Shown: positions 4,444 to 62,067, numbered from the stretch's first letter. The stretch: 62,067 nucleotides of DNA from an uncultured Gammaproteobacteria bacterium (GCA_964486685.1 CAZAOE010000005.1:1-62067); one strand, 5' to 3'. Notes: generated by a model not told the origin, from the letters alone. Translations and numbers: made by a program.

Positions 4444-4674
4444 AAAAGCGCGATGCTAATATACAAATACATCCGAATGATGCGAATTAAAATTTTTGGG
4501 TAATTCGCCTGCCTGCCGGCAGGCAGGGATTAATTTGTATATTCGGATTGATTAAACAAAATTATTAAAATCTCTTAAAAAATTTATTAGCCTAAACATC
4601 TAAATTCTGATACTTTTGGGAATTAATAAGCTTTATGTTAAAATTATTATATTAATATACTTTTTAAAATACCC

Positions 4675-5406
4675 ATGGATTATAAATACAAATTTTCTAT
4701 CATCATCCCTGCTTATAATGAAAAGGATAGGATATTAGGAACCTTAAACAATATTTATAAATATTTCAAGGGGAAAAATTCTGAAATAATTATAGTAGAT
4801 GACGGCAGCACCGATAATACTGCTTCCTTTATTGAATATGAAAAGGAAAATATTGCTAATAATATAAAAACCATTAGTTATCAGCCAAATCAAGGCAAGG
4901 GTTATGCCGTCAAAACAGGAGTAGAAAAAGCTCAAGGTGAATTTATATTATTTACAGACGCAGATAATTCTACTCCCATAGAAGAATTTGCTAAATTAGA
5001 CACAGGAATTAAGCAAGGTTTTGATATTGCTATTGGCTCCCGCTATTTAAAAAATAGCGCTGTTAAAATAAAACAAAGTATTCTTAGAATCTTAATTGGG
5101 AGATTAGGAAATCTGCTCATTCAATTATTATTAGTCAAAAATATCAAAGACACTCAGTGCGGATTTAAATTATTTAAAAATAAAATTGCTAAAAACATTT
5201 TTTCTAAACAAACCATTTATGGCTGGGGTTTTGATATGGAAATATTGGTCATCGCCCAGCTTTTTAAATATAAAATTATAGAAATTCCCGTGGACTGGTA
5301 TAATTCATCAGCCAGTAAATTCAGTCCCGTTAAAGATACTCTGCAAACATTAAGCGAATTAATAAAAATAAAAATCAACTTAATCACTGGTAAATATAAA
5401 AAATGA
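4675..5406 (+). CDS. Dolichyl/polyprenyl-phosphate glucosyltransferase-like GT2
   Basis: IIPAYNE, VDDGSTD, NQGKGYAV, FTDADNSTP, DTQCGFKLF, GFDMEIL motifs. Confidence 0.9.
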   Translation: MDYKYKFSIIIPAYNEKDRILGTLNNIYKYFKGKNSEIIIVDDGSTDNTASFIEYEKENIANNIKTISYQPNQGKGYAVKTGVEKAQGEFILFTDADNSTPIEEFAKLDTGIKQGFDIAIGSRYLKNSAVKIKQSILRILIGRLGNLLIQLLLVKNIKDTQCGFKLFKNKIAKNIFSKQTIYGWGFDMEILVIAQLFKYKIIEIPVDWYNSSASKFSPVKDTLQTLSELIKIKINLITGKYKK

Positions 5407-7046
5407 CCTTTAAAGAAATTGTCAAATCCATAGATAAAAAAGAAAAATTATTCATCCTGTATTTTTCTATTTTTTTAATCCTATTGCTATTAATTCCCTA
5501 TCTTTATGGATATTTTTCTGCCCCGGAAAACACTTACTATAACCCAATCTACGGATTTTCTTCTGGAGATAAAAGCGTTTATTATTCCTATATAGAACAA
5601 ATCAAACAAGGAAATTTTTTACTTAAGGACTTATATACTTCCGAAATTCAATCTCGACAAACTTTAAACGTTCTCTGGCTCTCTCTTGGGATTTTAGCTA
5701 AAACATTTCATTTATCTCCGCCCCTGGCCTTCCTCTTGTCTCAAATATTACTTACGCCTATTCTGATATATTCTTTATACTTATTAATTTCTTTGATATT
5801 TAGTTCAAAAATTAAAAGAAAAATAGCGCTTATCTTTATATCCCTAGCTTCTGGTCTAGGTTTTATAATTAACATTTTTACCCATTCTTTTCCTCCTAAT
5901 AATTTTATGCTCTATCCTTTGGATTTATGGGTGGCAGAGGCCTTTACCTTTCCTTCTATTTTTAACTCTGCTCATTTTATAATGTCTACTACTTTAATAA
6001 TTTTAATATTTTTATTCTCTTTTTTGGCATTAGAAAAAAATAAAATAAAATATAGTATCTTTTCTGGAATTTGTGGATTAATACTTTTTAATTTTCACCC
6101 TTATCATTTAGCTACTATAATTGCCGTTTTATCCATTTATTCTTTTTTACATGCCTTAAAAAACAAAACCAGTTTATTTTATTATTTAAAACATTTATCT
6201 ATAATTCTAATTATATCTGCCCCTTCAATCTTATATCATGTTTGGCTAATGCTTAATGACCCAATTACCCTGGGAAAGGCCATGCAAAATATATGTTTAA
6301 CTCCAGTAGCTTGGGCGACAATAATAGCTTATGGATTTCTTTTAATTGGTGCTATAGCTTATACAATCATATTATTGGATAAAAAAAGGCCTTTAAAAAA
6401 TTTAGAATTGTTTTTAATCACTTGGTTTATAGTTCAATTTTTATTAATATATTTTCCCCTCAGCATTCAACGCCGACTTACTCAAGGACTTAATATACCC
6501 ATGGCTTTACTTTGTTTACTTTTGATATTTTATATCTTTAAAAAATTTCCGAAATTGAAAATAAAAACACGTTTGGATAAAATTATTCTAATTTTTCTAT
6601 TTATACTTTTATTTAATATGTCTAATGTTTGGGGTTTAATAAACTCTTCTTTAGAACAAAAAACAGAAGCTTGGAAATTTTTATATTATATAAATAAGGA
6701 AGAAAAACAAGCTATAGATTGGTTAAAAAATAATTTACAAGAACAAGACAATATTTTGTCCACCTATATACAGGCGAGTATAATTCCTGGAATTACTGGA
6801 AAATCTGTCTTTATTGGTCATAGCCACGAAACCATTAATTCTGAACGAAAATATAAACAAATGCAGTGGTTTTTTACCGATGAAAATAACGATGAATTGC
6901 ATCTTCAGTTTTTAAAACAAAATAATATTACTTATATTTTTTATGGGCCTCGCGAAAAAAAATTAGGTGCCTGGGCACCACAAAACAAAAAATACCTAGA
7001 AAAGGTATTTAGCAATGAAAAGATAGAAATTTATAAAGTTCTCTAA
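5403..7046 (+). CDS. Polytopic membrane protein, probable GT-C fold
   Basis: About 12 TM helices, D..VYYS loop, C-terminal WLK...GH..ET domain; ATGA overlap with upstream GT2. Confidence 0.55.
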   Translation: MTFKEIVKSIDKKEKLFILYFSIFLILLLLIPYLYGYFSAPENTYYNPIYGFSSGDKSVYYSYIEQIKQGNFLLKDLYTSEIQSRQTLNVLWLSLGILAKTFHLSPPLAFLLSQILLTPILIYSLYLLISLIFSSKIKRKIALIFISLASGLGFIINIFTHSFPPNNFMLYPLDLWVAEAFTFPSIFNSAHFIMSTTLIILIFLFSFLALEKNKIKYSIFSGICGLILFNFHPYHLATIIAVLSIYSFLHALKNKTSLFYYLKHLSIILIISAPSILYHVWLMLNDPITLGKAMQNICLTPVAWATIIAYGFLLIGAIAYTIILLDKKRPLKNLELFLITWFIVQFLLIYFPLSIQRRLTQGLNIPMALLCLLLIFYIFKKFPKLKIKTRLDKIILIFLFILLFNMSNVWGLINSSLEQKTEAWKFLYYINKEEKQAIDWLKNNLQEQDNILSTYIQASIIPGITGKSVFIGHSHETINSERKYKQMQWFFTDENNDELHLQFLKQNNITYIFYGPREKKLGAWAPQNKKYLEKVFSNEKIEIYKVL

Positions 7047-7047
7047 A

Positions 7048-8046
7048 TTAATTTTTCATCCTCTTCTTTAAATAATCCACCCAGGGATTTGGTTGAGGAT
7101 CTATTTTATTGTATCCAGCTAAATAATAAACCAGATAGGAAGAAATTCCTAAAATATACATGCTCTGTGACCAAATATTATCACCCCGAGGATTAATTTC
7201 AATAAAACTAATCTTTTTTTTCTGCAAAATTTCTTTCATAATTTGATAACGTTTTTGATTTCTTTTAAAATAAAGCTTTGAATTTATTAAAATATAAATA
7301 ATGTTCTTATTCAGGTCTTTAGGAAAAGACAGACCTTCAAATTGATGATGACAAATTTCTGGAATACTAAAATAAGTAGCAAAATTTTTTCCGGTCTCAT
7401 TAAGTTGATTTTGCCAAATATGGGCATTGCCGATTAAATGTTCCGCAGAAATTATAATCGGAATTTTATTTACAATTTTTTTAGCTATTTTTTCAGCTAT
7501 TTTTTTACCTTGGTAAAAATAATGGATATTACTTTTAATCTTTCGTCCGCAAAAATCTAATATCTTAAGCTCTTTAAATAAAGCAATAAAAATTGCTATT
7601 GAATAACCAATAGCAAACCGCGGATTTAAAGCATAATTATATTTGGCCTGATAAACAAATTTATTAGCTTTCATCAAAGCCAATTTTCCACCGCTACAAA
7701 TTATAAAAACTTTTAATTTTTTTCTTTGGGCCTGCTGATAACAAACTATGCTTTCTTCTGTATTACCGGAAAAGCTAGAAATGATCACTAAAGTATCTTG
7801 ATCTGCCCATTTAGGCAATTTATAATCATTAATTATTAAAATTGGAATTGATAAATGTTCTTTAAAAACCTTTCTAACTAAATCTGGACCTAAAGCCGAA
7901 CCGCCCATGCCACAAACTAAAATCTTATTTATTTTTCTAAAATTAGTCGGTAAATTAAGCTTTTTAAAATCTAAAAAAATTTGTTCAAATTGCTTAGACA
8001 TCTCTTGATAAGTTTTTAAAACTAAATCTTGGTCTTTTTTAACCAT
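7048..8046 (-). CDS. Bifunctional phosphoglucose/phosphomannose isomerase (SIS family)
   Basis: GMGGS, SFSGNTEE, SGGKL, PR, QLNETGK, PE..HH..EG motifs. Confidence 0.85.
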   Translation of the reverse strand: MVKKDQDLVLKTYQEMSKQFEQIFLDFKKLNLPTNFRKINKILVCGMGGSALGPDLVRKVFKEHLSIPILIINDYKLPKWADQDTLVIISSFSGNTEESIVCYQQAQRKKLKVFIICSGGKLALMKANKFVYQAKYNYALNPRFAIGYSIAIFIALFKELKILDFCGRKIKSNIHYFYQGKKIAEKIAKKIVNKIPIIISAEHLIGNAHIWQNQLNETGKNFATYFSIPEICHHQFEGLSFPKDLNKNIIYILINSKLYFKRNQKRYQIMKEILQKKKISFIEINPRGDNIWSQSMYILGISSYLVYYLAGYNKIDPQPNPWVDYLKKRMKN

Positions 8047-8351
8047 AATTTTAATATCTAAACTCTAAATTCTAAACTCTAAACAATTCTTAAGCTCAAA
8101 TATTTTAATATTTTAAATTTTGAGTTTTGAATTTTGAATTTGTTTAGATATTAGATATTAGGATTTAGGATTTATAATATATAATCTTAATTTTATTATA
8201 ACATAATATTGCTCATTTTCCCTTCTCTTGCTAAGATAATTATACTAAAGAACTTAAGGACCAAAGAACTTAAAAACACAAGAACAAGAAAACAATTAAT
8301 CAATTAAACTATTATACTATTAAGCTATTATCCAATTAACCTATTAATACT

Positions 8352-9083
8352 ATGTCTGGACATTCTAAGTGGGCCACCACTAAACACAAAAAAGCAATCG
8401 TTGATTCTAAAAGATCTTCTTTGTTTACTAAATTGTCTAAAATTATAAGTATTGCAGCTCGGGATGGAGATGATCCAACTATGAATTTTAAATTAAGAAT
8501 GGCCATTGATAAAGCTCGGGGGCTTTCTATGCCCAAAGATAATATAGAAAAAGCCGTGGCTCGAGGAGCTGGAACCGGAGAGAGCAAAGAATTAGAAGAA
8601 ATTATTTATGAGGGCTATGGCCCAGAAGGCATTGCCTTGATAATTGAGATAGTTACTGATAATAGAAACCGCGTGGCCTCTGAAATCAGACATATCCTCA
8701 CTAAGTATGATGGTTCTTTGGGCTCCAGTAATTCTGTACTATGGCAATTCCAAAGAAAGGGTATTATTTATTTAAAAAACGAAACTATTAACGAAGAGCA
8801 AGAATTGCAAATTATAGATGCCGGTGCTGAAGATATTCAAAAACAGGATAACAGCATCAGAATTATAACTGCTATGGAAGATTTACAAAAAATTCAAGAA
8901 AAAATCACCAAAGGTTCCGACCAAAGCAAAAGAAAAAATATTATTGAGATAGACAATGCTGAACTTGAATATATTCCCAAAAATACTATCCAACCCCAAA
9001 ATCCTGAAAAAATAGAAAAACTTTTTGCAGAATTAGATGAAAATGATGATGTCAATAATTTTTATTCTAATGCTGAACTATAA
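8352..9083 (+). CDS. yebC: YebC/PmpR family protein
   Basis: MSGHSKWATTKHKK, YEGYGP, TDNRNR, DDV.NFYSN. Confidence 0.95.
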   Translation: MSGHSKWATTKHKKAIVDSKRSSLFTKLSKIISIAARDGDDPTMNFKLRMAIDKARGLSMPKDNIEKAVARGAGTGESKELEEIIYEGYGPEGIALIIEIVTDNRNRVASEIRHILTKYDGSLGSSNSVLWQFQRKGIIYLKNETINEEQELQIIDAGAEDIQKQDNSIRIITAMEDLQKIQEKITKGSDQSKRKNIIEIDNAELEYIPKNTIQPQNPEKIEKLFAELDENDDVNNFYSNAEL

Positions 9084-9273
9084 TCAATTACCAATTATCA
9101 ATTTACAATTTTCATTAAATGAACAATTAATCAATTACCAATTTGGAATTATTTTAGAAGCTAAATCGATAATTAAAAATCAAATAATTGATAATTTATT
9201 CAAAATTGAAAATTTAAAATTTAAAATTCTACCCCGTGCTTATCAAAATAAACTAACAAAAATAACTGAATTA

Positions 9274-9771
9274 ATGTCAATAAAAAATAAAAACAAAATA
9301 ATAATGGGTATTGACCCTGGCTTAGCTACCGTGGGTTATGGTTTTATTGAGGTTGAAAAAAAAGAAGCTAAATTTATAACTTGTGGTTGCATTGAAACCA
9401 AAGCCAAAACTGATTTTAATAAAAGATTGGAAATTATAAATCAAGAATTAACGCAATTAATTAAAAAATACCAACCCGATCTTTGTGGAGTGGAACAATT
9501 ATTCTTTTGTAAAAATGTTAAAACCGCGATGAACGTTGGTCATGCCCGCGGAGTAATTATTATGACCTTAAGTCAAAATAAGGTTCCTTTTCGAGAATTC
9601 ACTCCCTTGCAGATTAAACAAACGATTACTTCTTATGGTCGGGCTGATAAAAAACAAATCGCGGAGATGGTCAAATTAACCCTTAACTTAAAACAAATAC
9701 CAAAAAAGGATGATGCCTCTGATGCCCTAGCCATAGCCCTGACTACTTTATATAGTAAAATTTATAAATAA
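9274..9771 (+). CDS. ruvC: Holliday junction resolvase RuvC
   Basis: GIDPG..TVGYG, VEQLFF, HARGV, G.ADK.Q, DD.SDALAIA; start placed at ATG 9274 because the longer ORF from 9037 reads through an intergenic repeat. Confidence 0.93.
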   Translation: MSIKNKNKIIMGIDPGLATVGYGFIEVEKKEAKFITCGCIETKAKTDFNKRLEIINQELTQLIKKYQPDLCGVEQLFFCKNVKTAMNVGHARGVIIMTLSQNKVPFREFTPLQIKQTITSYGRADKKQIAEMVKLTLNLKQIPKKDDASDALAIALTTLYSKIYK

Positions 9772-9773
9772 AG

Positions 9774-9829: not shown

Positions 9830-9831
9830 AC

Positions 9832-10497: not shown

Positions 10498-10511
10498 AAT
10501 CTATACCCACG

Positions 10512-10739: not shown

Positions 10740-10839
10740 CCCTCCTTCGCCAAAGGATTCGGAGGACTATCCTTCTATTTCCTAACGGAAATTACGGATG
10801 GCCTGTGCCATCCGAAGCTCTGCGAAGCAGAGCGAAGGA
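10740..10839. repeat. Palindromic repeat cluster at the tRNA-Gly 3' end
   Basis: CCTCCTTCGCCAAAGGATTCGGAGG hairpin, TGGCCTGTGCCATCCGAAGC, GCTCTGCGAAGCAGAGC, GCGAAGGAT; motifs shared with 48591-48697. Confidence 0.8.
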
Positions 10840-10914
10840 TGGAGCGGGTAGGGGGAATCGAACCCCCGTCTTCAGCTTGGAAAGCTGTAATAATAACCAT
10901 TATACTATACCCGC
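10840..10914 (-). tRNA. tRNA-Gly(TCC)
   Basis: GCGGGTA acceptor stem, CAGC-TTTCCAA-GCTG anticodon arm, GTTCGATTC, encoded CCA. Confidence 0.95.
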
Positions 10915-11075
10915 AAAAGTAATTTTCAATTACCCGCCTTAATTTTATTGTTTAAAATTACGGCAGGTTACCAATTATCAATTTTCAATTATAAACTTTT
11001 ATTTTGAATTTTGCGCTTTGCTCTTTTAAAGTAATATCTATTAAATCATACTTATAATTCAAAGTCAATATTTCT

Positions 11076-12246: not shown

Positions 12247-12459
12247 ATAATTATTTAAGCAATCATAAATTTATTTTATCATCAAAAAAGTAAAATTAAA
12301 AAGTTTTCTTTACTATTCTGCTTATCTTTGCTAAATTAAATATTACTTAATTAGTAACAAGTTAAAAGTTACAAGTTACAAGTAAATTAATAGCACTTGG
12401 AACTTGCCTGTCCTCTGAAGCCTTGGCGAAAGAGGACAACTTGAAACTATCAACTATTT

Positions 12460-13755: not shown

Positions 13756-13760
13756 TCCCC

Positions 13761-13862
13761 GCCTGCCACGTCGAACGTGGCCTGCCATCGCCTGCCCACT
13801 CGCCATTGCTATCGCTCAGGCGATTAGCAGGCGAGATGCCGTAGACTATGGCGGGCAGGCGA
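13761..13862. repeat. Nested GC-rich palindrome cluster
   Basis: GCCACGT-CGA-ACGTGGC; outer TCGCCTGCCC/GGGCAGGCGA enclosing CTCGCC..GGCGAG and GCCGTAGACTATGGC. Confidence 0.8.
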
Positions 13863-13909
13863 ATGACCTAAATTTAAAATAATCAATGCTCTTTGGGTCA
13901 AGAAAAACC

Positions 13910-15391: not shown

Positions 15392-15664
15392 CGCGATCCT
15401 AATATACTATATATTCTTAACCAGAGACCAGGTCTGCTGTATATGAAAATTACCAATTACCAATTTTCAATTTGAATTTAATTAAAAAATTTTCAATCAT
15501 CAATGTCTTACTAATTATCTACTTAAAACATTAATCGAGAGGAATTGTAAATTGAGTCATTGAGATTTAAATGAAAATTGAAAATTTCAAATTGATAATT
15601 GACTAAATTCTTCATTAAAATCACTAAACAAATTTAAATAATCTAAGTTAAATTAAAATCACCT

Positions 15665-17521: not shown

Positions 17522-17671
17522 TAGTTAATACCAATATACAAATATAATACCAATCATGCTAATACAATACGAATAATATATATAATCTACCTAGAAAAAC
17601 AATCTTAATCATTAGTATAATATTCGTATTATTGGTATTAATTCGTATATTAGCATTATAATCATTAGTAT

Positions 17672-18100: not shown

Positions 18101-18170
18101 TCTTTTGTACTTTTAACTTGCAACTCCGAAGTCCACAGGACGAAGGGGGGTAACTTACAACTAAATTCAT

Positions 18171-21086: not shown

Positions 21087-21262
21087 GGCCTTGTTTCTTT
21101 TTTTTAAAGCGATACAAATATAACTAATATACGAATTATTAGTATTTAATTAGTATATTAGCATCATCTCATTCGTATCATTAATATCAACAATTTCGTT
21201 AAAATCTACTAAACCAATCTTAAGCATAAGTTATATATAAAAAATTTAACCCAAAAACGAAC

Positions 21263-22470: not shown

Positions 22471-22637
22471 TGCGATGCCAATATACTAATACATGCTAAT
22501 TATATGAATACTAAGATAATTGCTATAATTAGTATACTGGCTTTTTTCATTTTTCAATATAATTATTAGTGTTAAATTAGTATAATTAGTATTAATTCGT
22601 ACCTGCCTGCCGGCAGGCAGATATTAGAATCGATAAA

Positions 22638-25367: not shown

Positions 25368-26129
25368 ATGTTAACTATTAGATTCAAAAGAGTTGGAAGA
25401 AAAAAAATTCCTATCTATCGAATAGTTTTAATGGAAAAACATAAAGATCCTTGGGCTGATTATAAAGAAAAGCTCGGATTTTATAATCCTAAAACTAAAG
25501 AAATAGAATTAAACGCGGAAAGAATAAAATATTGGATATCAGTTGGGGCTCAACCCTCTAATACTGTCCATAATTTATTAGTAAATAATGGAGTGATTGA
25601 AGGTGAAAAAAAGAAAGCCGTCAAAATCAGTAAAAAAAGACTGGCCCGGGAGAAAAAGAAAAAAGAAGCCACAGAAAAAGAAACTAAAACTAAGCAAGCA
25701 AAAACCGATCAAGCTAATTCTAAAGAAAAAGTAGAAACTAAAGAAGTAACAAAAACCACAGAAAGTCCTAAAGAAGAAACTAAGGATGAGGGGTCCCAAG
25801 ATAAGAAACCTGAAGCAGAAAAACCTGAAGATAAAAAAGTAAAAGAAGAGGTTAAGGAAGTTAAAAAGGATATCGAAGAAGTAAAAACAGAAATTAAACC
25901 TGAAAAAAAAGAAAAGATTAAAAAACAAGCAAAGCCCACAGAAACCCCAAAAGAAGAACCTATGGCTGAAGAAAAAAAAGAACAAAAACCTATCAAAGAA
26001 AAGAAAGAATCATCCTCCACTGCTATGCCTGCTGGCAAACAGGAAGCTACGGATGACAAGAAAACCAAAGAAGATAAGGTTAAAGATGAACCTAAGAAAG
26101 TTAAAGAAAAAAGTCCTGAGGAAAAATAA
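25368..26129 (+). CDS. rpsP: 30S ribosomal protein S16 with long K/E-rich C-terminal extension
   Basis: IRF.R.G.K..P.YRIV, LG.YNP, YW...GAQPS.TV in the first ~80 aa. Confidence 0.93.
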   Translation: MLTIRFKRVGRKKIPIYRIVLMEKHKDPWADYKEKLGFYNPKTKEIELNAERIKYWISVGAQPSNTVHNLLVNNGVIEGEKKKAVKISKKRLAREKKKKEATEKETKTKQAKTDQANSKEKVETKEVTKTTESPKEETKDEGSQDKKPEAEKPEDKKVKEEVKEVKKDIEEVKTEIKPEKKEKIKKQAKPTETPKEEPMAEEKKEQKPIKEKKESSSTAMPAGKQEATDDKKTKEDKVKDEPKKVKEKSPEEK

Positions 26130-26247
26130 TTAAAAATTGAGTCATTCCTGCCTTCGCCCCTCGATAAACTCAGGGCTACGGCAGGCAGGTAAAATTCATT
26201 TTAAATTGAAAATTTAGCAAATTTTAATTTTATTAAAATTCGCGTAT

Positions 26248-26322
26248 GCGGGTATCGTATAGTGGCTATTACACGGCCTTGCCAAGGCTGAGAGAGGGGT
26301 CCGATTCCCCTTACCCGCTCCA
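26248..26322 (+). tRNA. tRNA-Gly(GCC)
   Basis: GCGGGTA/TACCCGC acceptor stem, CGGCC-TTGCCAA-GGCTG anticodon arm, T-loop variant TCCGATT, encoded CCA. Confidence 0.93.
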
Positions 26323-26612
26323 TGAACTATTCGTCAAGCTCAGTAAACTATTCACTTCGTTCAAGTTTACTGCAGGTCGCTTGACTCAAGTTCATGGCGC
26401 GGCCATCAGTGCTATCTACAACATTGTTCAACGAATAGTTCATGTGGTGAACCCGAATGGAATGAGTGGTTTACCACTATCTCACTTTATTCGCTCAGGT
26501 TTATGGCGCTGCCACATATAAACCTATCAGAACGAATGGTTTATGTAGTGAACCCGAACGACTTGCAGTAAACCCGAACGAAACAAAGTGAAGAGAGTGG
26601 TTTACTGAGGGA
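26321..26612. repeat. Composite inverted-repeat array between tRNA-Gly and the GIY-YIG gene
   Basis: CATGAACTATTCGT (26321-26334)/ACGAATAGTTCATG (26431-26444); CTCAGTAAAC..GTTTACTGCA.GTCG (26339-26379) inverted at 26559-26609; three GT(G/A)AACCCGAA units. Confidence 0.85.
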
Positions 26613-26656
26613 GTGGTTCACTGTTATTACATACATAAAAATTAAAGAAAAGCGAT

Positions 26657-26917
26657 ATGACATTTTATTTTGTTTATATTTTATTTAGTTTAAAAGACAA
26701 AAAATTGTATATCGGTTTTACAAATAATCTCAAAAGTAGATATTCAAAACACAAAAATGGTAAAGTTAAATCAACTTGCAATAGAAGACCTTTGAAATTG
26801 ATTTTTTATGAGGCCTATTTAAATAAGTATGATGCTTTAAGAAGAGAAAGATATTTTAAAACCAATAAAGGTAAAACTACTTTGCGACAAATGTTAAAGA
26901 ATTTTTTGGAAGAATAA
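26657..26917 (+). CDS. Small standalone GIY-YIG endonuclease
   Basis: FVYIL..LYIGFT.NL..R...H..G, RP..L..YE, A..RE..K motifs. Confidence 0.9.
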   Translation: MTFYFVYILFSLKDKKLYIGFTNNLKSRYSKHKNGKVKSTCNRRPLKLIFYEAYLNKYDALRRERYFKTNKGKTTLRQMLKNFLEE

Positions 26918-28858: not shown

Positions 28859-29053
28859 TTTAAATTTTAAAAATTATATATTTAAATAAAATTAACTAAT
28901 TGCTAGAAATTAATAAGTGTAAAATGCGATACTAATAATCGATGCCAATATAGCGATACCAATATACTAATCTCATGCGAATAATACGAATATACTAATT
29001 ATTAGTATTAATTTGTATATTAGTATCATCCAATTCGTATCATTAGTATATAA

Positions 29054-29986: not shown

Positions 29987-30007
29987 AGGGTTTTAGTTAG
30001 TAGTTAA

Positions 30008-30070
30008 CCTGCCTTCGCCTGCCGTAGCCCCCCACTTTTTTCAAAAAGTGGGGGGCTACGGCAAGGCAGG
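30008..30070. repeat. Nested palindrome
   Basis: Perfect stem TGCCGTAGCCCCCCACTTTTT/AAAAAGTGGGGGGCTACGGCA inside CCTGCCTT..AAGGCAGG; flanked by TAGTT(A/G/C)G units. Confidence 0.85.
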
Positions 30071-30106
30071 TAGTTGGTAGTTCGTAGTTTTATTACCAAT
30101 TACTAA

Positions 30107-31375
30107 TTAAATTGATTCAATAATTTCCTTCAAATATTTCATCTTTTTAGAATTAAAATCCTCGGCAGTGATGGAATTGGCGGCAGAAAGGGCATTAGCG
30201 GCCTTAGATTTATCTTTCTGATACTTTCCAGGGTAATTTGCTTCTAAACTACCATTAGGAAAAATATATAAATTATATTTTTTTAAATTTTCAATTCGCT
30301 TGTCTCCTTTTAATTTTATATTTAAATGATTTATTAGCTCTTCCAAATAATAACCTTTTAAGGCATCCCTATCTAAAATAATTAAAAATGGAATCTTAAA
30401 AATTTTTAATAAATCTGCATATATATTTGTATTGGACTTACCATAAGCTTGAATAACCTTAATTTCTTTATTTCCTTTATAAAATTTCTTTATTAGGCCT
30501 TGAATTATTAATTTGTCAGAAATTCCTTCAACTAAAAGTACCTTGTCAGCCAAAAACATTTCCAAATTATCAGCATTTAATTCTTTTATTAATTTATCGT
30601 AATTAAAACTTCCTTTTTCTAAAACATAAGCATTTGTATTGCCGCGCTCTTTATTGATTCTAAATAAGTGTAGAAGTGTGGCCGGAGTTATGAACAAAGG
30701 CGAATGTGTTGTAAAAATGATTTGCCCAGCATTAGCATTTTCCATGGCCCATAAAAGTTTTTTAATTAAAGCCGGGTGTAAATGAGTTTCTGGCTCGTCA
30801 ATCATCACTACTGTATAATCTGGATGAAAAATATATAAAAGCATGGTGAAAATCCTACCGAAACCAGAACCCAAATAATCCATAGTTACCCTTCTTTGAC
30901 CCTCATAAAGTCCTTCTTTCTGATATTTAATATCCATAGCATTTTCCGTAAGAGTAATTTTTGGAAAATGATTTTTTAAATGTTTCTTAAATTTATGTAA
31001 ACTTTCCGGATAATCAAATAAGCTTTTATAATCTTTTTCTATTTGTTGATAATCAACAAAAGCCCCCTCATTTAATCTCTTAATCTTTGCTCTTAGTTTT
31101 TTTAGAAAAGTTGGGGTAGATAAATTTCTTTGACCATTCTTTAAAGATAAAATAAATTCCTGACCTTGATGTTCACCTTCAATAAAAACATCAGCTTGGG
31201 GATAAAAAAGATTGGATTTATCTAAATTTTTATTAAAAGCATATTCTAAAGCATCTAAAATATTTGACTTGCCACAATTATTTTGCCCAATTAAAATATT
31301 AATCGGCAATAAGTCCAAAACCATCGGTTTTTTAATACTCTTATATTGATTTATTTTTATTTTTTTTATAAACAT
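30107..31375 (-). CDS. OLD-family ATP-dependent nuclease (ABC ATPase plus TOPRIM)
   Basis: GQNNCGKS, LGSG, IDEPETHLHP, TTHS, LLVEG.SD, LDRD, LE..Y. Confidence 0.8.
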   Translation of the reverse strand: MFIKKIKINQYKSIKKPMVLDLLPINILIGQNNCGKSNILDALEYAFNKNLDKSNLFYPQADVFIEGEHQGQEFILSLKNGQRNLSTPTFLKKLRAKIKRLNEGAFVDYQQIEKDYKSLFDYPESLHKFKKHLKNHFPKITLTENAMDIKYQKEGLYEGQRRVTMDYLGSGFGRIFTMLLYIFHPDYTVVMIDEPETHLHPALIKKLLWAMENANAGQIIFTTHSPLFITPATLLHLFRINKERGNTNAYVLEKGSFNYDKLIKELNADNLEMFLADKVLLVEGISDKLIIQGLIKKFYKGNKEIKVIQAYGKSNTNIYADLLKIFKIPFLIILDRDALKGYYLEELINHLNIKLKGDKRIENLKKYNLYIFPNGSLEANYPGKYQKDKSKAANALSAANSITAEDFNSKKMKYLKEIIESI

Positions 31376-31467
31376 ATTTGTCGATGTTAATATACGAATT
31401 GTACTAATTATACAAATGGATTATACGAATGATACAAATAAAATCTACTAATATTCGTATACTAATA

Positions 31468-41119: not shown

Positions 41120-42589
41120 TTATTTTTTAACTTTGGATTTCTTAACTTTAGATTCTTTGGTCTTTAATTTTTTCTCTTTGCCTTGGTCCTCTTCACTTTG
41201 GTCGAGGTCTTTGACAAGACCTTTGGTGGTTTTTTTACCCTTCTTAATTTCTTCCTCATTCGCTAAAACTTTGGAGGACAGCTGTTTTTTAGTTTCTTGT
41301 TTTTCTGTTCCTTCGTTCTTTGGTCCTCCCTGCGCTGAAGCTTTGGGAGGTAAATCTTTTATTTCTTTGTCCTTTAGTTCTTTTGTTTCTTTGTCCTCTG
41401 GTTCCTTTGTTTCCTTGTCCTCTGGTTCCTTTGTTTCCTTGTCCTCTGTAGCTTTAGCGAAAGAGGATTTGTCCTTTGGTTCCTTAGTTTTTTTGGAACC
41501 TTTTAAAGAAAGTCCTAAACGATGTTCTCTAGTATCTAAATTTATAATTGTAAATTTGTATTCTTCTCCAATATTAACTACGTCTTCTGGACTATTAATA
41601 ATATTAGAACTCAACTCTGAAATATGGGCTAAGCCATGAATATCTTTATCTAATTCTACAAAGGCCCCAAAAGGATTTATTTTTAAAACCTTTCCCTTAA
41701 CCGTTGCTCCAACCTGATATCTTTTTTCAATATCCTTCCAAGGATCTAATATTAATCTTTTAATACTCAAAGAAATCCTACCCCCGTCAACAGAAATAAT
41801 TTCGGCCTTAACTTTGTCTCCAACTTTTACCACATCATTAGGGTCATCTATTCTTTGCCAAGCCAATTCAGAAATATGTACTAAGCCCTCTAAGTTATCA
41901 CCAAACTCTACAAAGGCCCCAAAATTTGCCACTCCAGTAATTCTGCCTGCTATAATTTTACCAACCTTATATTCTTCTAAAGTTTTCTTTTGATCTTCGG
42001 CCCAAGCGGCCTTTTGAGAAACAATTAATTTTAATTCTTTTTCATCAACATCAATCACCACTACTTTAAAATCCTGCCCTAAAAAACTTTTTAAATGTCC
42101 TAAAATTTTACTTTTATCACCACCTTCAACTCGCGGATAATACTTAGTAGTTAATTGCGAAACAGGCAAAAAACCCATTACATTGCCAACCTTTACCATT
42201 AATCCACCTTTATTAGCATCTATAACTTTAACATCTACTACTTCTTCTTCTTTCATTAATTTTTCTAGATTTTCCCAGGCCTGTTGATGGCCAGCATATC
42301 TAAATGATAGCTCCATCATTCCTTTTTCATTATCCAATTCTATAACAGTGGCTACGGCCTTGTCGCCAATTTTAAAATTTCCACCGCTTTCAGATTCATC
42401 ATAAATTTCCCCTCCTCTTACTAACCCTGAAGCAATGCCTTTATAATCTAAAACCACCTCATTTTTTCCAATAGAAATAACCTGACATTCAATTAAATCA
42501 CCAATTTGCGGTAATTTAATTTCGTCATGGCTTGCTAAAATTTTTCCAAAAGCAGTTTTGCTTTTATCTTTAATGTCTTGTGTACTCAT
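41120..42589 (-). CDS. rpsA: 30S ribosomal protein S1 (4 S1 domains) with repeat-derived tail
   Basis: NKGGL, FLP.SQL, FGAFV twice, GL.HISEL twice; start at ATG 42589; tail includes 24-bp tandem repeat EDKETKEP. Confidence 0.9.
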   Translation of the reverse strand: MSTQDIKDKSKTAFGKILASHDEIKLPQIGDLIECQVISIGKNEVVLDYKGIASGLVRGGEIYDESESGGNFKIGDKAVATVIELDNEKGMMELSFRYAGHQQAWENLEKLMKEEEVVDVKVIDANKGGLMVKVGNVMGFLPVSQLTTKYYPRVEGGDKSKILGHLKSFLGQDFKVVVIDVDEKELKLIVSQKAAWAEDQKKTLEEYKVGKIIAGRITGVANFGAFVEFGDNLEGLVHISELAWQRIDDPNDVVKVGDKVKAEIISVDGGRISLSIKRLILDPWKDIEKRYQVGATVKGKVLKINPFGAFVELDKDIHGLAHISELSSNIINSPEDVVNIGEEYKFTIINLDTREHRLGLSLKGSKKTKEPKDKSSFAKATEDKETKEPEDKETKEPEDKETKELKDKEIKDLPPKASAQGGPKNEGTEKQETKKQLSSKVLANEEEIKKGKKTTKGLVKDLDQSEEDQGKEKKLKTKESKVKKSKVKK

Positions 42590-43070
42590 ATTAATTATAA
42601 ATTTAAATTTACAATTTTCATTTCTCAATTTTCATTTAATAATCAATATTACAATGCTCAATTCTCAAAATTTGTTAATGGTAATTTAAAATTAAATCAT
42701 TGTAAATTAAATTCAAATTGAAAATTTATAATTGAAAATTAAAAAAAGACCTTTTAATTATTAATTGCCTGCATTAACTGGTCTAAAGCCAATCCAGGTT
42801 TCTATATATTAGTATATAATCAGAAAAAAAGCAAGAGTTAGCCATAGTTATAGGCCTTAAGCCGTAAGATATTTTAGAAAACAATCTAACTCCTCAACAA
42901 GCTCAAGGTCCACGACAATTTAACAATTTAACAGTTTAACAATTTAATTCTAATTTACAAAAAAATAGAATAAGGGTAAGATTAAAATATAATAATTCCT
43001 TTATTTAAAATTTAAAGGTCAACAAGTTCGGATATAAGAAGTTAGATGAAATAATTATTTTTTAATTTTT

Positions 43071-44886: not shown

Positions 44887-45007
44887 TATTTTTTATTAAA
44901 AAAAATAGAATAAGGGTAAGATTAAAATACTTTCTACTTTCTCCTTTTACCTTGCCTGCCCTCCGAAGCTCGAAGAGCGAAGGGGGGTAACTTTTAACTG
45001 ATTTACC

Positions 45008-48390: not shown

Positions 48391-48467
48391 TGGTGCGTCT
48401 ACCTGGACTTGAACCAGGGACCTCGACTTTATAAGAGTCGCGCTCTAACCAGCTGAGCTATAGACGC
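48391..48467 (-). tRNA. tRNA-Ile(TAT)
   Basis: GCGTCTA/TAGACGC acceptor stem, AGCTCAGCTGGTTAGAGC D-arm, CGACT-CTTATAA-AGTCG anticodon arm, GTTCAAGTC, ACCA. Confidence 0.92.
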
Positions 48468-48590
48468 AAAATTAATTTTCAATTTTCAATTTCGAATAAA
48501 TTTCTAATGATTTAATCTTTAATTAATTTAAAATTTTTAAATTTTAAATTCAATTAAAATTTGTAATTTATAATTTATAATTTGAATAAA

Positions 48591-50145: not shown

Positions 50146-50322
50146 ATTATTTTAATTACCAATTTAAAATTTACAATTTTCATTTAATAACCAATATAAC
50201 AATATACAATAATCAATATATTTTATCCGAATTTTTAATAAAAGATTATTGATCATTGAAGTATTGAAAATTAAATGTAAATTGAAAATTGGTAATTTCT
50301 AATTAAAAAAGGATATTATAGC

Positions 50323-52390: not shown

Positions 52391-52577
52391 AACGATGCCA
52401 ATATAGCGATACCAATATACGAATGGCATACGAATTATACTAATATGCTAATCATTAGTATTTAATTAGTATATTAGTATTAAACCATTAGTATCATCAG
52501 TATTAGTATATTACCCGCCATAATTTTATAAAAATTAAGGCGGGATTAGTATCATTTAATTCGTATCATTAGTATTT

Positions 52578-53880: not shown

Positions 53881-53945
53881 TTAGTACTTAATAATTGATA
53901 ATTGGGACTACTAACTACCAGCTACTAACTACTAACTAAAAACCT

Positions 53946-56342: not shown

Positions 56343-56575
56343 AATTTAGAATGATGAATTACGAATTTTGATTAAACCCCATCACCCTTTACTTTAAAAA
56401 TTTGATATCTTAATTTTATTATATAATTTTTTTGAAATAATTCTTTGATAATATTTTGTAAAAAAGGTGATGGGGTAAATTTCTAATTATTTAATTTCAA
56501 ATTAATTCATAATTCTAAAATTTAAAATTCATAATTTAATCGAAATTAAAAATTAAAAATTCAAAACTTAATTCT

Positions 56576-57367: not shown

Positions 57368-57419
57368 ACTAAAATAAATAAATTTTCGGGCTTAAGCTCG
57401 GAAGAAAGGATCAAAAATT

Positions 57420-57701
57420 ATGAACAAAATGGAACTCATTGATGCCATTGCTGCCAAAAGCGACTTAACTAAGAAAGATGCTGAAAATGCAGTTAATGCA
57501 TTAGAAGCAGTTATAATCAGCACCCTACAATCAGATGAGAAGGTTACTTTAACTGGTTTTGGAACATTTGAAGCCAGAAAAATGAAAGCCAGAGCTGGTG
57601 TTAATCCACAAACTGGTGCTAAAATCCAAATTGCTGCAACTACAGTACCTAAATTTAAAGCTGGTAAATCTTTTAAAGACGCCATTAAGGGCAAAAGATA
57701 A
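57420..57701 (+). CDS. hup: DNA-binding protein HU
   Basis: MNK.ELI, GFGTF, G.NPQTG, PKFKAGK. Confidence 0.95.
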   Translation: MNKMELIDAIAAKSDLTKKDAENAVNALEAVIISTLQSDEKVTLTGFGTFEARKMKARAGVNPQTGAKIQIAATTVPKFKAGKSFKDAIKGKR

Positions 57702-57719
57702 TTATCTTAAGATAATATA

Positions 57720-57749
57720 AAAACAGGCCTCACGAGGGGCTTGTTTTTT
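57720..57749 (+). terminator. Bidirectional intrinsic terminator
   Basis: AAAACAGGCCTC/GGGGCTTGTTTT stem. Confidence 0.7.
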
Positions 57750-57766
57750 GTTATTAAAAATTTATA

Positions 57767-58555
57767 CTATTTTAATATAATCCCTAGCTTTTTATTTTGA
57801 TTAGGGCTTTGAAAATCATAATCCCAATCTGCAATGGCCTGCCATAAAATATCTGGACTATAAACATAATTTTCACCTTTACGCGTTCCCGGGTCATTAG
57901 TAATTATTAAACCATCCTTAGTAAAGCCCTTTACAATTAACATGTGGTACAAAGGACCAGGTTGTTTAAAATTAGGATTACCTAATTCACGACCCGCACA
58001 AGGTAAAATTAAAGGATAACCAGTTTTAATTATTTCTTTAATCTCTTTAATAGATTCTAAATGGATAAGCTCTGCATTGAGATTTAAAAATTCCTTAGCC
58101 ATCTGAACAGTAGTGCTGGCTGACAAATCAAAATGCCCGCCATAATTCTCTAATTGCCAATCCACCATATCCCCAATATCTTCTAAAGCCGAGGCAATAC
58201 TAATCGCTTGATCATTTAAAAATGCCTGCACCATTAAAATTGAGGCCTCTTCACAACCTTCTTTATAAGGTTCCTCCCATTTTTGATCTGGCGATTGAAT
58301 CGTAAAAGGTACGGCTAAATTTATTTCTAAAATTTCTAATTTATCTTCTGCGACCTCTTTGGTTTTTATTTCCTGTTCTTCTGTTTCTGGGTTCTTCTGT
58401 TTCTCAACAACATCTTCAAACTTGATCTCTTCTGGTAATTCTATTTTTTCTGGCTCTGAAAAATATTCTTTAATCATTACTCGATTATTATAAAAAACAA
58501 AGCCTAAAATAATTAGGACCAACAAAAACAAATATATTTTAAAATCTTTTTTCAT
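57767..58555 (-). CDS. Membrane-anchored C39-like peptidase
   Basis: N-terminal TM; VPF..Q.P, GCEEAS, YHML...G, NDPG. Confidence 0.75.
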
Positions 58556-58941
58556 TCTAATTTATTATTCAAATATCTTCGACAAAATTCAATAACATTT
58601 GATGCTAAAGAATAATTTTTATAATCTTTTATCGGTAACCAAATAACCTTACTGTGTTCTGGCTCATTAGCCCGCGGTTCTCCTTTTACTATCTCTGCTA
58701 AAAAAATATGGGCGATAAAATTTTGACCATCTTTTTCAAATTCTATATTAGTTAGATATTTTATCAATTTTACTTCACACGCAATTTCTTCTCGAGCTTC
58801 CCGAATAGCTGCTTCTATTAAACTTTCCCCTTCTTCAACGTGACCACCGGGAAATTCATAATGTTGATCTTTGATTTTATAAAGTAATAATAATTTTTCA
58901 TCTTGAATAATTGCTGGGCCTGATAATAATATTTTTTCCAT
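58552..58941 (-). CDS. NUDIX hydrolase
   Basis: PGG.VE.GE....AA.RE..EE. Confidence 0.88.
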
Positions 58942-58942
58942 A

Positions 58943-60235
58943 CTATTTTATCTCTTTTAATAACTCCTTAATCACTACTCTTTCATCCCAAGCAATCTTT
59001 CTGCCGCCAGCAACACAAATATACTGTTCTGCTCCTTTACCGGTTAAGAGCACTAAATCATCGGCTCGAGCTAATTTTAGGGCCTTTTTGATAGCTTCTC
59101 GTCTATTCTCCATTTTAAACAAATCTTTATCTAATATTTTTCCCTTTTCAATTGCCCCTTGAGCTACATTATTTATAATCTCCATTGGGTCATCATCATA
59201 AGGATCTTCATTGGTAACAATTACTATATCAGCTTTTTGGCCAGCCATTTGTCCTAAAATTGGTTGGCGAGATTTATCTCTCCCACCTCCACAAGAACCA
59301 AGCACATGAATTAATCTATTATAATGAAATAAATCTAAGGTTTTATAAAGTTGTTTTAAGCTCTCAATTTCCGGAGCATAATCTACTAAAATTCTAATTC
59401 CTTTTTTATTTTGAATAAATTCCATTCTGCCTGGGGTGCCTTCAAAATCCTGTAAATATTCACTCATTTTTTTTAAACTTAAACCCTGGGTAGAACAAAC
59501 CGCCAAAGCAGTTAAAATATTGTAAACATTAAATTCGCCTAATATATTTATTATAAAATCAATGTCCTGGACTTTAAACTTAGTACTAAAATCTTCCACT
59601 CTAATGTCCTGGGCCTGAAAATCGCTATCATTATTTATTGAAAAACTAAATTTCTGGTTTGCTTGATTATTAAAAAATTCTGTAAAATATTCATCGTCTT
59701 TATTAGCAATAATAACCTTTTCTGCTCCTACTTTTTTCTTGCACTTAGATAAATTTTTAAATAATTCTAATTTGGCCTGCTTATAGTTTTCAAATCCACC
59801 ATGAGATTCTAAGTGCTCAGGAGTTAAATTTGTAAAAACCGCTAGATCATAATCAATTCCTAAATGCCGGTATTGTTTAATTCCTTCAGAAGAAGTTTCA
59901 ATGATAGCATAATCACATTTCTCCTTGACCATACGCTTTAGTATTTTTTGTAAAGCTAAACGGCCCAACATGGTCATTTTTTTATTATTCAACCATTCTT
60001 GTTCATTAATTTTAAAACCAACTGTTGAAGTATAGCCAACCCTATAACCACCCTTTTCTAACAAAAAAGAAATCAAATTTACTACCGTGGACTTACCATT
60101 GGTGCCGGTCACTCCAATTACCTTTAACTTTCGAGAGGGGTAACCATATAAAAAAGCACCCAATAAAGATAATACTTTGTGGTAGAAACTTAAAATAAAC
60201 TGCGGAATAATTTTTTTTAATAGTTTTTTTAACAT
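58943..60235 (-). CDS. murE: UDP-MurNAc-tripeptide ligase MurE
   Basis: [38 protein letters not shown]; ATG start chosen (TTG 60250 is an alternative). Confidence 0.9.
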
Positions 60236-60250
60236 AAAGAAGTTTACCAA

Positions 60251-61228
60251 CTAAATAAACTTTTTTAAAACCTTATACAAGCTATATATCTTCTGATTAT
60301 AAACTAAATCAAATGTTCCGGGTAATTTTTTTTCCTCACCTCCAAAACCCTTTTTAAAACGAGTAAAACCAGCCCACTTATGTTTTGGCTGATCCACCGG
60401 GGAAATTCCCCAAAAATCATAAAGTTGATAGCCCTGGGACTTGGCCCATTCAATTTGCTCCCACTGTAATAAATGAGGAGCCATTAAATTTCTCTTCTGA
60501 TTAGCCGAAGCACCATGTAAATAGGTTACGGTATCGCCAAAACTAACCACAATATTGGCCGCTAAAACATCTTGCTCGTGTTTGGCAATCCATAAATTAA
60601 AATTTTCTAAAGCCAACATTTGGGCATAATATTTTTTATGATGAGCCGTAAAATCATTGCGTGCTGACGTTTTGGAAATTAAGCTGAAAAAAATATCTCT
60701 AGCCAATTCTTTGTCTTGAATTAACTCTATTTTTACTCCCTTTTTTTGGGCTAATTTAATATTATAACGAGTTTTCTGATGCAGTTGGGCTGATAATTCT
60801 TTTTCTAACTTAGTTAAATCTAATAATAAAGTTCGGCTGGGCTGAAAATCTTTAACTTGCTTAATATTTTCTAAATCAAAATTAAAAATAGGTTCAAAAC
60901 GAAAAAATACTTCACCCATTTCTTTGGTTTCAATGCTTAGGTCGCGAATGGCCTTTAAAATTAATTTTAAATATTTATTTTTATCCTGAACTTGATCAGC
61001 AATAATTGGTCCCCGGGCTAAATACAAATAACTATAATTTAAAAACAATTTTTTTTGGGTAATGGAAGCTATAGCTAAAATTTCATCTTTTTCTATATAA
61101 CCAATTTGCCAAATTTTATTACCCATGTCTTTCTGAAATTTATTCCAAGCAGAACTCTGCAAAAATTGCGAATATTTTTGCCCACTTATAAAATTATCTA
61201 ACTCTTGATTATTTAATTCTTTAATCAT
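60251..61228 (-). CDS. FemABX-family lipid II aminoacyltransferase
   Basis: FLQS..W, RGP, KTRYNI..A.K.GV, YLHGAS, YDFWG, FK.GFGG. Confidence 0.88.
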   Translation of the reverse strand: MIKELNNQELDNFISGQKYSQFLQSSAWNKFQKDMGNKIWQIGYIEKDEILAIASITQKKLFLNYSYLYLARGPIIADQVQDKNKYLKLILKAIRDLSIETKEMGEVFFRFEPIFNFDLENIKQVKDFQPSRTLLLDLTKLEKELSAQLHQKTRYNIKLAQKKGVKIELIQDKELARDIFFSLISKTSARNDFTAHHKKYYAQMLALENFNLWIAKHEQDVLAANIVVSFGDTVTYLHGASANQKRNLMAPHLLQWEQIEWAKSQGYQLYDFWGISPVDQPKHKWAGFTRFKKGFGGEEKKLPGTFDLVYNQKIYSLYKVLKKFI

Positions 61229-61797
61229 TTTTTTAATAACTTTAGGGCTGCTTTAATTTTATCAGACACATTTTCTAAATCTTTAGGAATTTTATTATAA
61301 ACATTTCTAATTTCATCATCTGAAAAACCTAAAACGCTTAAAGCCGAAAAAATCTCATCTAATTGGCTACTTGCCCCTACTTCTTCTTGATTAGCTAATG
61401 CCCCAAACTTACTCTTCAGCTCTACAATAATTCTCTCCGCGGTCTTTTTACCAATTCCAGAAACCTTTTGAAACATTTCTGCATTCCCACTTATAATCGC
61501 CTCTTTTAAATTTGAGACGTCAGCAATTGACATTACATTTAAGGCCGATTTAGGGCCCACTCCCGAAACAGAAATCAATAATTTAAAAAATTCCCGACCA
61601 GCCAAATCTGTAAAGCCATATAATTCTTGAGCGTCTTCTCTTTGTTGGTGATAAATGTAAAAACTGACCTCTTCATCTAACTTAGCTTTAAACAAAATCT
61701 TTTCTGGTAAAAAAATCTCATAGCCAACATCTTTGACCACTAAAATAACATACTTTTCGGTCTTATTAATAATTTTTCCTTTTAAATAAGCAATCAT
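61225..61797 (-). CDS. ruvA: Holliday junction branch migration protein RuvA
   Basis: MIAYL.G, VGY, RED..ELYGF, VSGVGPK, GIGKKTAERI..EL, AL..LGF. Confidence 0.96.
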   Translation of the reverse strand: MIAYLKGKIINKTEKYVILVVKDVGYEIFLPEKILFKAKLDEEVSFYIYHQQREDAQELYGFTDLAGREFFKLLISVSGVGPKSALNVMSIADVSNLKEAIISGNAEMFQKVSGIGKKTAERIIVELKSKFGALANQEEVGASSQLDEIFSALSVLGFSDDEIRNVYNKIPKDLENVSDKIKAALKLLKK

Positions 61798-62067
61798 GGG
61801 CTTAGTATAAAGTATAAAGTTTCCACCAGGGGCGGACCTCCTCCAGGGGCGGACACAACGCCTCTGGCGGAAAAAGGTTAAAGTACTTTATTCTTTATAC
61901 TTTTACCTTTCTACTATATATTATCTTAAGTTGAAATAAGAAGCAATCTATCCCTCACCTTTTCAAAAATTAATTTGCTCTGTTCTTATTAAAAAACTTT
62001 AAAGGTGGGGGGATGAAGAAGATGAGATACATAGGTAACACTCTAAATTTACCAAAATCATTAATTT

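Follow-up and report, generated by a model that had tools for sequence, protein, structure and literature searches.

The window analysed here is a stretch of 62,067 nucleotides which makes up the entire contig C5 of a 1.09-Mb assembly (G000; 51 contigs, 30% GC, completeness 95%) from an uncultured lake bacterium. The organism was placed in the phylum Patescibacteria by the relatives of its IF-2. The intergenic spacers of the window hold two kinds of hairpin-forming repeats: AT-rich arrays of 7-8-bp units, often arranged as inverted arms, and GC-rich hairpins, among them a palindrome of 20 bp. A small gene of the GIY-YIG nuclease type lies in the same window. The nearest genome was that of a congener, G003 (locus L001), with 91% identity of the IF-2 protein and about 86% nucleotide identity of the genes. 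The comparison sets comprised 41 relatives, 401 sampled Patescibacteria genomes and, for the periodicity, 37 genome samples and 13 within-family pairs. The gene positions were obtained with a crude caller of the longest open reading frames (ORFs) and, therefore, the intergenic DNA takes in some missed genes and leaves out over-extended starts. The Rfam search resulted in four tRNAs only.

Unit arrays at 19 positions and ten GC-rich hairpins had been marked in these spacers by the first-pass annotation. All of its coordinates were confirmed, including the position of each hairpin and the identity of the 28-mer at 28940-28967 with that at 52393-52420. The inverted arms that it described were found at 12 of the 19 arrays (8050, 9083, 12355, 15447, 17520, 21108, 22471, 28926, 42600, 50153, 52393 and 61805), with forward units on the left and reverse-complemented units on the right. 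The symmetry was weak, one-sided or direct at the rest: the array at 4449 has a single unit per side, 31382 has seven forward units and one reverse, 48470 has forward units only, 53905 has one orientation, 29995 is direct on both sides, and 18107 and 44929 are weak.

The periodicity was determined over 687 intergenic regions of at least 60 bp and compared with 20 dinucleotide shuffles. The lag-7 match was 0.342 in the spacers and 0.306±0.001 in the shuffles (z score 32), the z scores of lags 8 and 14 were 22 and 19.5, and harmonics appeared at 14-15 and 21. The coding DNA showed period 3 only. Direct and inverted 6-mer pairs inside the regions were both about 40% more numerous than in the shuffles, with 22,191 against 15,788±218 and 18,447 against 13,116±197, respectively. 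With Tandem Repeats Finder (TRF), 253 intergenic arrays of period 7 were detected compared with 18.0 in the shuffles, an enrichment of tandem 7-nt units which, together with the lag-7 value, is that of heptanucleotide sequences of the short tandemly repeated repetitive (STRR) type; the corresponding numbers were 120 and 28 for period 8, and 85 and 10.7 for period 14. Long imperfect hairpins were predicted in all eight of the folded elements, with z scores from -2.2 to -4.4, and 0-3 of 200 shuffles folded equally well. Both the periodicity and the inverted symmetry are far above the shuffled background, as the first-pass annotation had expected.

The majority of the window arrays belong to dispersed families, which were defined by BLAST of the window spacers against the own genome. 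For Family A (query 50152-50308), 50 loci were found and 30 of these were full length; Family B (query 17526-17671) had 27 loci with 11 full length, and Family C (query 56343-56561) had 18 loci with 4 full length. The copies were 65-85% identical across 140-225 bp, and their cores were conserved. The consensus arms consist of about eight CAATNNN units in Family A and of ATACNAAT units in Family B; short conserved cores are enclosed by the arms in both, and the centre and the number of terminal units are variable. In Family C, AATT-type arms flank a CCCCATCACC..GGTGATGGGG hairpin. Altogether, 36% of the intergenic bases resemble at least one other spacer. Small size (100-220 bp), lack of coding content, inverted arms with the above hairpin scores, and many dispersed copies of common origin (50, 27 and 18 loci with shared cores) are properties of MITEs (miniature inverted-repeat transposable elements). 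Among the 41 related genomes, Family A matches were detected in seven (38 in G000, 16 in G003, 5 in G001). Outside the own genome, more than a few matches occurred only in the congener, the others were mostly partial, and nothing beyond short partial matches was found in 34 of the 41.

The elements are positioned mainly between co-oriented genes: 40 of 46 for Family A, 22 of 26 for Family B and 14 of 17 for Family C, compared with 66% expected. The arrays stand at both ends of co-oriented spacers and often touch codons, with 85 of 381 within 12 nt of a stop and 106 of 381 within 12 nt of a start; no bias towards the start codon was detected (p 0.27).

Family A is represented in the window by the elements 9059-9257, 15447-15641, 42591-42745 and 50152-50311. 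The first, with CAATTNN arms, lies inside a block aligned with G003 and is thus shared, and a Family A match is found at G003:C10:24729-24843; the second was assigned by its BLAST family and folds as a hairpin, and the last (fold z -4.3) is absent from G003. Among the Family B elements, 17523-17671 ends at the tsaE start codon and has a 28-bp AGCTGAT/AGCTAAA array in its place in G003, and the short element 21105-21192 is replaced there by AACTTTC heptamers. The element 22471-22632 carries the 20-bp palindrome with its last base changed at 22602-22621; 28894-29053 is absent from G003; 52391-52577 contains a CCCGCC..GGCGGG hairpin (52514-52544) and ends 2 nt before the rbfA start codon, and its G003 counterpart is shorter and has no hairpin. 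Family B-type units also form the inverted ATACNAAT/ATTNGTAT arms at 4449-4550, around the 20-bp palindrome 4508-4527 (the orthologous arms in G003 have no palindrome), and the array 31382-31467, which is mostly in a single orientation. The Family C element at 56343-56561 is mostly absent from G003.

The other arrays have units of their own. The nested inverted heptamer arrays at 8050-8178, TCTAAAC..TTTAGAT around TCAAAAT..ATTTTGA, have a fold z of -4.2 and are absent from the orthologous spacer of G003. The AGTTACA/AACTTG arrays at 12353-12452 (fold z -4.4) surround a 30-bp GC hairpin (12407-12436), TAGTTNN units in direct orientation stand on either side of a composite GC hairpin (30008-30072) at 29995-30090, and AGTATAA/TACTTT units at 61805-61915 surround a GC-rich hairpin at 61821-61872. 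Short ACTT-type units at 18107-18160, where the content of G003 is unrelated, and TACTTTC/TAACTTT units at 44929-45000 enclose GC hairpins (18124-18148 and 44953-44988) with a GAA/GAA internal loop. Hairpins with this symmetric loop and differing stems were observed at 10810-10840, 18124-18148 and 44961-44985 of the window and at G000:C14:8647-8671 and C34:5144-5168; there were about five GC-rich copies only, three of them nearly identical, and no enrichment is claimed. A CTAACTA heptamer array occupies 53905-53940, and AATTTNN arrays at 48470-48590 lie between tRNA-Ile and tRNA-Val. The tRNA-Ile gene (anticodon TAT, 48391-48467) adjoins tRNA-Val, and GC hairpins precede both. Next to further tRNA genes, a CCCGCC..GGCAGG hairpin with an AT-rich inner stem is located at 10933-10967, beside tRNA-Gly(TCC) and a CAATTNT array, and a CCTGCC-type GC hairpin at 26147-26189 upstream of tRNA-Gly(GCC). 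A composite of nested CCTGCC-type GC hairpins extends over 13756-13865. The small single-domain GIY-YIG gene (26651-26878, plus strand; Pfam GIY-YIG 57.5 bits) is downstream of tRNA-Gly and has nested hairpins before it.

The turnover of these sites was determined by aligning the window with syntenic G003 contigs, which provided syntenic sequence for 11 window loci. Five were shared (4449, 9083, 12355, 22471 and part of 52393), and six were window-only or replaced in G003 (8050-8178, 17523-17671, 21105-21192, 28894-29053, 50152-50311 and most of 56343-56520), so that the presence/absence variation sought in a sister genome was found. G003 frequently has other heptamers at the matching place. 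The unit upstream of yebC is CTATTAA in the window and AGCTGAT in G003, and that upstream of tsaE is ATTAGTAT in the window and again AGCTGAT in G003. The AGCTGAT/AGCTAAA arrays of G003, at L038:9900-9962 and L040:3346-3379, are directly followed by the start codons of the orthologous yebC and tsaE genes, and the window arrays at these places are unrelated. Four public sequencing runs, all of them in the form of contigs, were also aligned; the joints were noisy at a likeness of 85%, and none of the runs cleanly skipped an element. The AT-rich layer is dispersed, capable of hairpin formation and subject to rapid presence/absence turnover. The view that the arrays are not neutral AT noise was thereby upheld, as most of those in the window are dispersed non-coding families with conserved non-repetitive cores and a presence that varies against the congener.

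The GC-rich hairpins behaved as a second class, in line with the first-pass annotation. The scan of the genome for CCTGCC...GGCAGG resulted in 59 loci, which include about 19 copies of the perfect palindrome of 20 bp and of variants with one base changed, two families of about 46 bp and of 42 bp, and composites with an element inside an element (e.g. 13762-13859 of the window). The GC hairpins are nested in each other and in other repeats; the 46-bp element, for instance, is present in some copies of a 500-bp dispersed repeat and absent from another copy. This repeat is non-coding, has roughly 8-10 copies of 77-99% identity (among them G000:C6:31956-32469, C7:3641-4176, C16:20019-20534, C1:80008-80541 and C4:61335-61767), and ends several contigs. 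In the alignment with G003, exactly 30 bp, corresponding to the hairpin at 12407-12436, are cleanly missing there from the conserved array, and 20 bp are cleanly missing at the palindrome of 22602; in G003, the opposite arm of the 22471 element contains an independent copy of 19 bp. No target duplication was found at these three sites. GC islands were enriched near tRNAs (39 compared with 22.4±4.8), whereas the CCTGCC loci were not (5 compared with 3.1).

The arrays had also been proposed to act as landing sites for the palindromes. All ten of the listed GC hairpins do touch arrays by eye, but genome-wide the placement was that of random intergenic positions, and three tests gave values at or near random. 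A TRF array was located within 20 bp of 13 out of 50 CCTGCC loci, with 13.1 expected, and dispersed AT-rich repeat flanked 19 out of 50, with 14.6±3.2 expected. One of three measures of flank periodicity was nominal (reached by 17 of 500 random sets), and the other two were not. Across genomes, a coupling of heptamer periodicity with the palindrome was suggested by the first eight genomes and disappeared in the larger test, where 6 of 13 within-family pairs were positive and the Spearman coefficient over 37 genomes was -0.14. Preferred landing in arrays could not be shown.

The 20-bp palindrome has a wide distribution. It was found in 24 of the 41 relatives (up to 2 mismatches) and in 114 of the 401 sampled Patescibacteria genomes (up to 1 mismatch), and the reversed-sequence control gave 0 in every genome. 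Viral stretches (35) and metagenome stretches (at least 120) also contained it, with identical letters across phyla, and the GC content of these contigs ranged from 29 to 71%. Over 166 unique sites, the complementarity ended at the 20th base with sharp boundaries, and no target consensus was found beside it. Some palindromes are located in loops of tRNA copies (D-loop, variable loop or anticodon loop). Three viral contigs have the palindrome inside tRNA genes (L046:8616, L069:2284 and L076:515), including a tRNA-Met-like variable loop and the D-loop of another tRNA. The palindrome was not found in the literature searched, which did not extend to the SRM variant and host lists in the supplements on Ssn nucleases, and none of the literature matches listed pairs Patescibacteria or the candidate phyla radiation with a MITE, a repetitive extragenic palindromic (REP) or a palindromic-element term.

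A search for full-length copies enclosing a small gene had been proposed. No gene-enclosing element was found, and of the candidate genes named, GIY-YIG gained support. The genome has four small ORFs of 66-98 amino acids, among them the window copy at 26651-26878, with GIY-YIG as their only domain, in agreement with the single-domain protein of about 94 amino acids known from the Ssn nucleases; no NCBIfam model scored above its cut-off. Homologues were present in 36 of the 41 relatives, and the five genomes without one had 0 palindromes (Fisher 0.008). Among the 401 genomes of the phylum, the palindrome occurred in 108 of the 270 with a GIY-YIG gene and in 6 of the 131 lacking one (odds ratio 13.9, p 8e-16), and the family-level Spearman coefficient was 0.57. 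Eleven loci contain the palindrome as well as a GIY-YIG gene; in these, 9 of 14 palindromes were within 300 bp of the gene compared with 24% for random positions, and eight were within 150 bp where about 0.9 were expected; typical distances were 20-60 bp before the gene or 30-150 bp after it. The palindrome resembles the hairpin repeats of the Ssn systems in that it stands beside the nuclease gene and is found in the same genomes, by statistics that ignore kinship. The palindrome-rich genome had more GIY-YIG copies in 9 of 13 within-family pairs. In the own genome, only CCTGCC-type relatives were found within 500 bp of the GIY-YIG genes, at two of the four. Two small GIY-YIG genes, G000:C6:13220-13429 and C17:23949-24161, are bracketed by inverted CACCCTGTTAAATA motifs; the same motif also makes up a 39-bp hairpin that interrupts the C6 copy. 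The GC-rich layer combines precise indels, nesting, identity across phyla, and co-occurrence with and adjacency to a GIY-YIG gene.

Taken together, we consider it rather probable that the spacers between the genes contain, one over the other, two classes of selfish repeat DNA which form hairpins and are independent of each other. The AT-rich elements, lineage-specific non-coding palindromes of about 100-220 bp, would be copied to tens of sites in a MITE-like manner, presumably by transposition. Their arms would expand, contract and diverge via slippage of the 7-8-bp units, and locus-specific heptamer arrays may form likewise. The GC-rich hairpins of 20-110 bp, the CCTGCC...GGCAGG superfamily and others, would be gained or lost precisely without target duplication and may land in arrays, inside one another and in further repeats, as well as, in other genomes, in copies of tRNA genes. 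The two layers would meet because both are tolerated in spacers only, not because one targets the other. A clade of small, Ssn-like GIY-YIG nucleases, often located at tRNA genes, probably has the 20-bp palindrome as its cognate hairpin, and the nuclease may recognise or move it. As a more tentative and somewhat doubtful extension, the palindrome and its CCTGCC relatives may be miniature elements moved in trans by tRNA-lodged small GIY-YIG single-strand nucleases, with the AT-rich heptamer-arm elements possibly a second hairpin class on the same single-strand route.

Several observations weigh against these interpretations. On the AT-rich side, the only candidate target-site duplication was the 9-bp direct repeat bounding 28894-29053, and the remaining junctions were ambiguous. 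No autonomous copy enclosing a gene was found in a non-exhaustive search of the 95%-complete assembly, where core pairs were 67-451 bp apart with one at 24.6 kb, and no matching transposase was found among the few Pfam families searched. The comparison of two genomes without an outgroup does not distinguish insertion from deletion. On the GC-rich side, the closest solved relative of the GIY-YIG genes, which are candidate members of cd10448, is 1zg2 of UPF0213 (E 6e-6), and the published SRM search pattern had one match in the genome compared with 0-1 in five shuffles. None of the four GIY-YIG genes of the own genome abuts the 20-bp palindrome. The GIY-YIG tally over the 401 genomes was made by hand and its statistics do not take kinship into account; the GIY-YIG density in palindrome-bearing loci was not raised overall (10.9 compared with 8.5 per Mb), and the link within family pairs was weak, the gene missing from 4 of 13 palindrome-free and 0 of 13 palindrome-rich genomes. 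Several palindrome-free genomes carry 7-8 GIY-YIG genes; because many such genomes hold several, the gene may be needed yet not sufficient, or a single clade may matter.

The alternative that the arrays arise in place, by polymerase slippage in 7-nt steps with inverted arms formed by strand-switching or selected as hairpins, and without transposition, is unlikely but has several observations on its side. The 351 period-7 arrays have 106 different canonical units, and with locus-specific arrays such as that at 8050, slippage fits these as well as transposition does. The units differ between orthologous spacers of the two congeners, as upstream of yebC and tsaE, and their number varies among family copies. 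A lag-7 z above 4.5 was obtained in 9 of 37 Patescibacteria samples, with unrelated units and in some genomes of 45-48% GC. Among the long simple repeats of prokaryotes, heptamers are also reported to be the most frequent in passages of PMC4679880 and PMC4692102, where slippage is proposed as the cause. However, the copies of Families A, B and C, at up to 50 sites, agree in their non-repetitive cores and ends across 140-225 bp, for which slippage alone is insufficient, and entire elements are present or absent as blocks.

It is improbable that the arrays are functional cis-elements, either intercistronic RNA hairpins for processing, stability or termination, or 5'-leader arrays which recruit S1 or cold-shock single-strand-binding proteins in lieu of a Shine-Dalgarno sequence. 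The enrichment between co-oriented genes, the stable hairpins and the arrays abutting stop and start codons would all fit such a role. A Shine-Dalgarno-like motif (GGAG, GAGG or AGGA within 20 nt upstream) was found at only 132 of the 1035 crude gene starts of the whole genome, and a like proposal is made for TAACTGA repeats in a passage of PMC4679880. These agreements are opposed by the fast replacement or loss between genomes with about 86% identical genes and by the missing start-codon bias. The RNA contigs over the region, which span 26106-26411 and start near 30059, were uninformative on function.

For the GC palindromes, transfer by a REP-associated tyrosine transposase (RAYT, a Y1 HUH transposase), which would make them elements of the REP/REPIN type, had been suggested along with GIY-YIG and is quite improbable. 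The genome does have an IS200-type gene (C44, 142 bits) and a RAYT-like ORF of 166 amino acids (G000:C3:29246-29746; Y1_Tnp 35 bits, HUH motif), and insertion without target duplication would suit this mechanism. The co-occurrence test failed, with Y1_Tnp in 14 of 24 palindrome-bearing and in 10 of 17 palindrome-free relatives and none in G001 or G024, which carry 51 and 19 palindrome copies, respectively. Beside the RAYT-like ORF, a different hairpin, CAAGGGGTTGCAACCCCTTG, has copies at the 3' end and again some 100 bp downstream, and the 20-bp unit starts with CCTG, has no GTAG/CGTC head and no consensus beside it. TnpB was not found in the genome. Finally, the heptamer arrays as footprints of 7-bp target duplications from repeated hairpin insertion and excision would explain why 24 of the 166 sites have heptamers on both sides that agree in at least 5 of 7 positions (2.4 expected), why lag 7 is the strongest lag in palindrome flanks, and the striking examples in a viral contig of 67% GC, but this model was rejected as highly implausible, since the element is the sole difference, with no duplication, between the filled and the empty sites (22602 and G003), the same lag-7 peak is obtained from random positions in the non-coding DNA of the palindrome-bearing contigs, and the coupling across genomes is missing.

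Patescibacteria are held to have streamlined genomes; nevertheless, about one third of the spacer DNA is repeat-derived here and its turnover is faster than that of the genes. The repeats break assemblies, as contigs of G003 end at them, and mislead the calling of start codons. If the GIY-YIG link is true, it would extend the newly described Ssn nuclease-hairpin systems to a hairpin conserved across phyla and would offer a candidate mechanism for hairpin spread, a question left open in the relevant passages of PMC11893778. The movement in trans, if true, would represent a nuclease-hairpin pair which crosses phyla and phages unchanged and inserts into arrays, tRNA loops and other hairpins without target duplication.

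Some further features of the window were observed. Both contig ends (62010-62067 and 1-55) have exact 53-58-bp overlaps with ends of C9, C17, C7, C36, C25, C33, C23 and C20, and of C15, which look like assembly-graph overlaps at repeats. The gene at 30107-31375 on the minus strand combines AAA_21/AAA_15 ATPase domains with an OLD-like TOPRIM, an architecture of the defence-nuclease type. A 24-bp tandem repeat with 3.8 copies and 92% matches lies within a coding region at 41358-41448.

Both layers resemble known kinds of repeats. Correia elements, Rickettsia palindromic elements (RPE), REP sequences with bacterial interspersed mosaic elements (BIME), and MITEs are short non-coding inverted-repeat elements at tens of sites, polymorphic and hairpin-forming. 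The AT-rich families are similar in their tens of sites, polymorphism among relatives, hairpins and location between co-oriented genes; they differ in that the arms are degenerate tandem heptamers of variable number, and no clear target duplication or parent insertion sequence was found here. In cyanobacteria, STRR heptamers reportedly host palindromic mobile elements of about 20-27 nt, the small dispersed repeats (SDR), which are said to nest in other repeats as well. The tandem spacer heptamers and the small nesting palindromes of the present genome are alike in this respect, whereas the phylum and the sequences are different, the arrays are the inverted arms of dispersed elements, and a preference of the small elements for arrays was tested here and not found. 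According to passages of PMC4692102, the intergenic heptamers GGGAATC of Xanthomonas and GGGGA(C/T)T of Nostoc lie mostly between co-oriented genes, often as convergent stem-loop-capable pairs, at 70-75 per genome and with a length that varies between close relatives. The co-oriented spacers, convergent pairs and length variation are shared with the arrays described here; in contrast to one G-rich unit per genome, the present arrays have many AT-rich units in core-bearing families.

The closest counterpart of the GC-rich layer is provided by the Ssn nucleases with their NTS/SRM hairpin repeats (Chenal et al., Nat Commun 2025, PMC11893778), characterised, in the parts of that paper dealing with the family, by a single-domain GIY-YIG protein of about 94 amino acids (CDD cd10448) and by site-specific cleavage of single-stranded DNA near a hairpin. 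Compared with that description, the published SRM pattern is unmatched here, the hairpin is a perfect 20-bp palindrome without an oriented upstream tag, identical across phyla and not co-diverging with the host, and the GIY-YIG genes are located at tRNA genes or tRNA fragments. As judged from sequence, the likeness would consist of a small single-domain GIY-YIG gene together with scattered hairpin repeats of 20-50 nt, often flanking the gene and widely distributed. The two layers have the appearance of heptamer-arm palindromes as in Xanthomonas and cyanobacteria and of small mobile hairpins such as those of the SDR, REP or Ssn type, and the Ssn-like interpretation of the palindrome holds the most promise.

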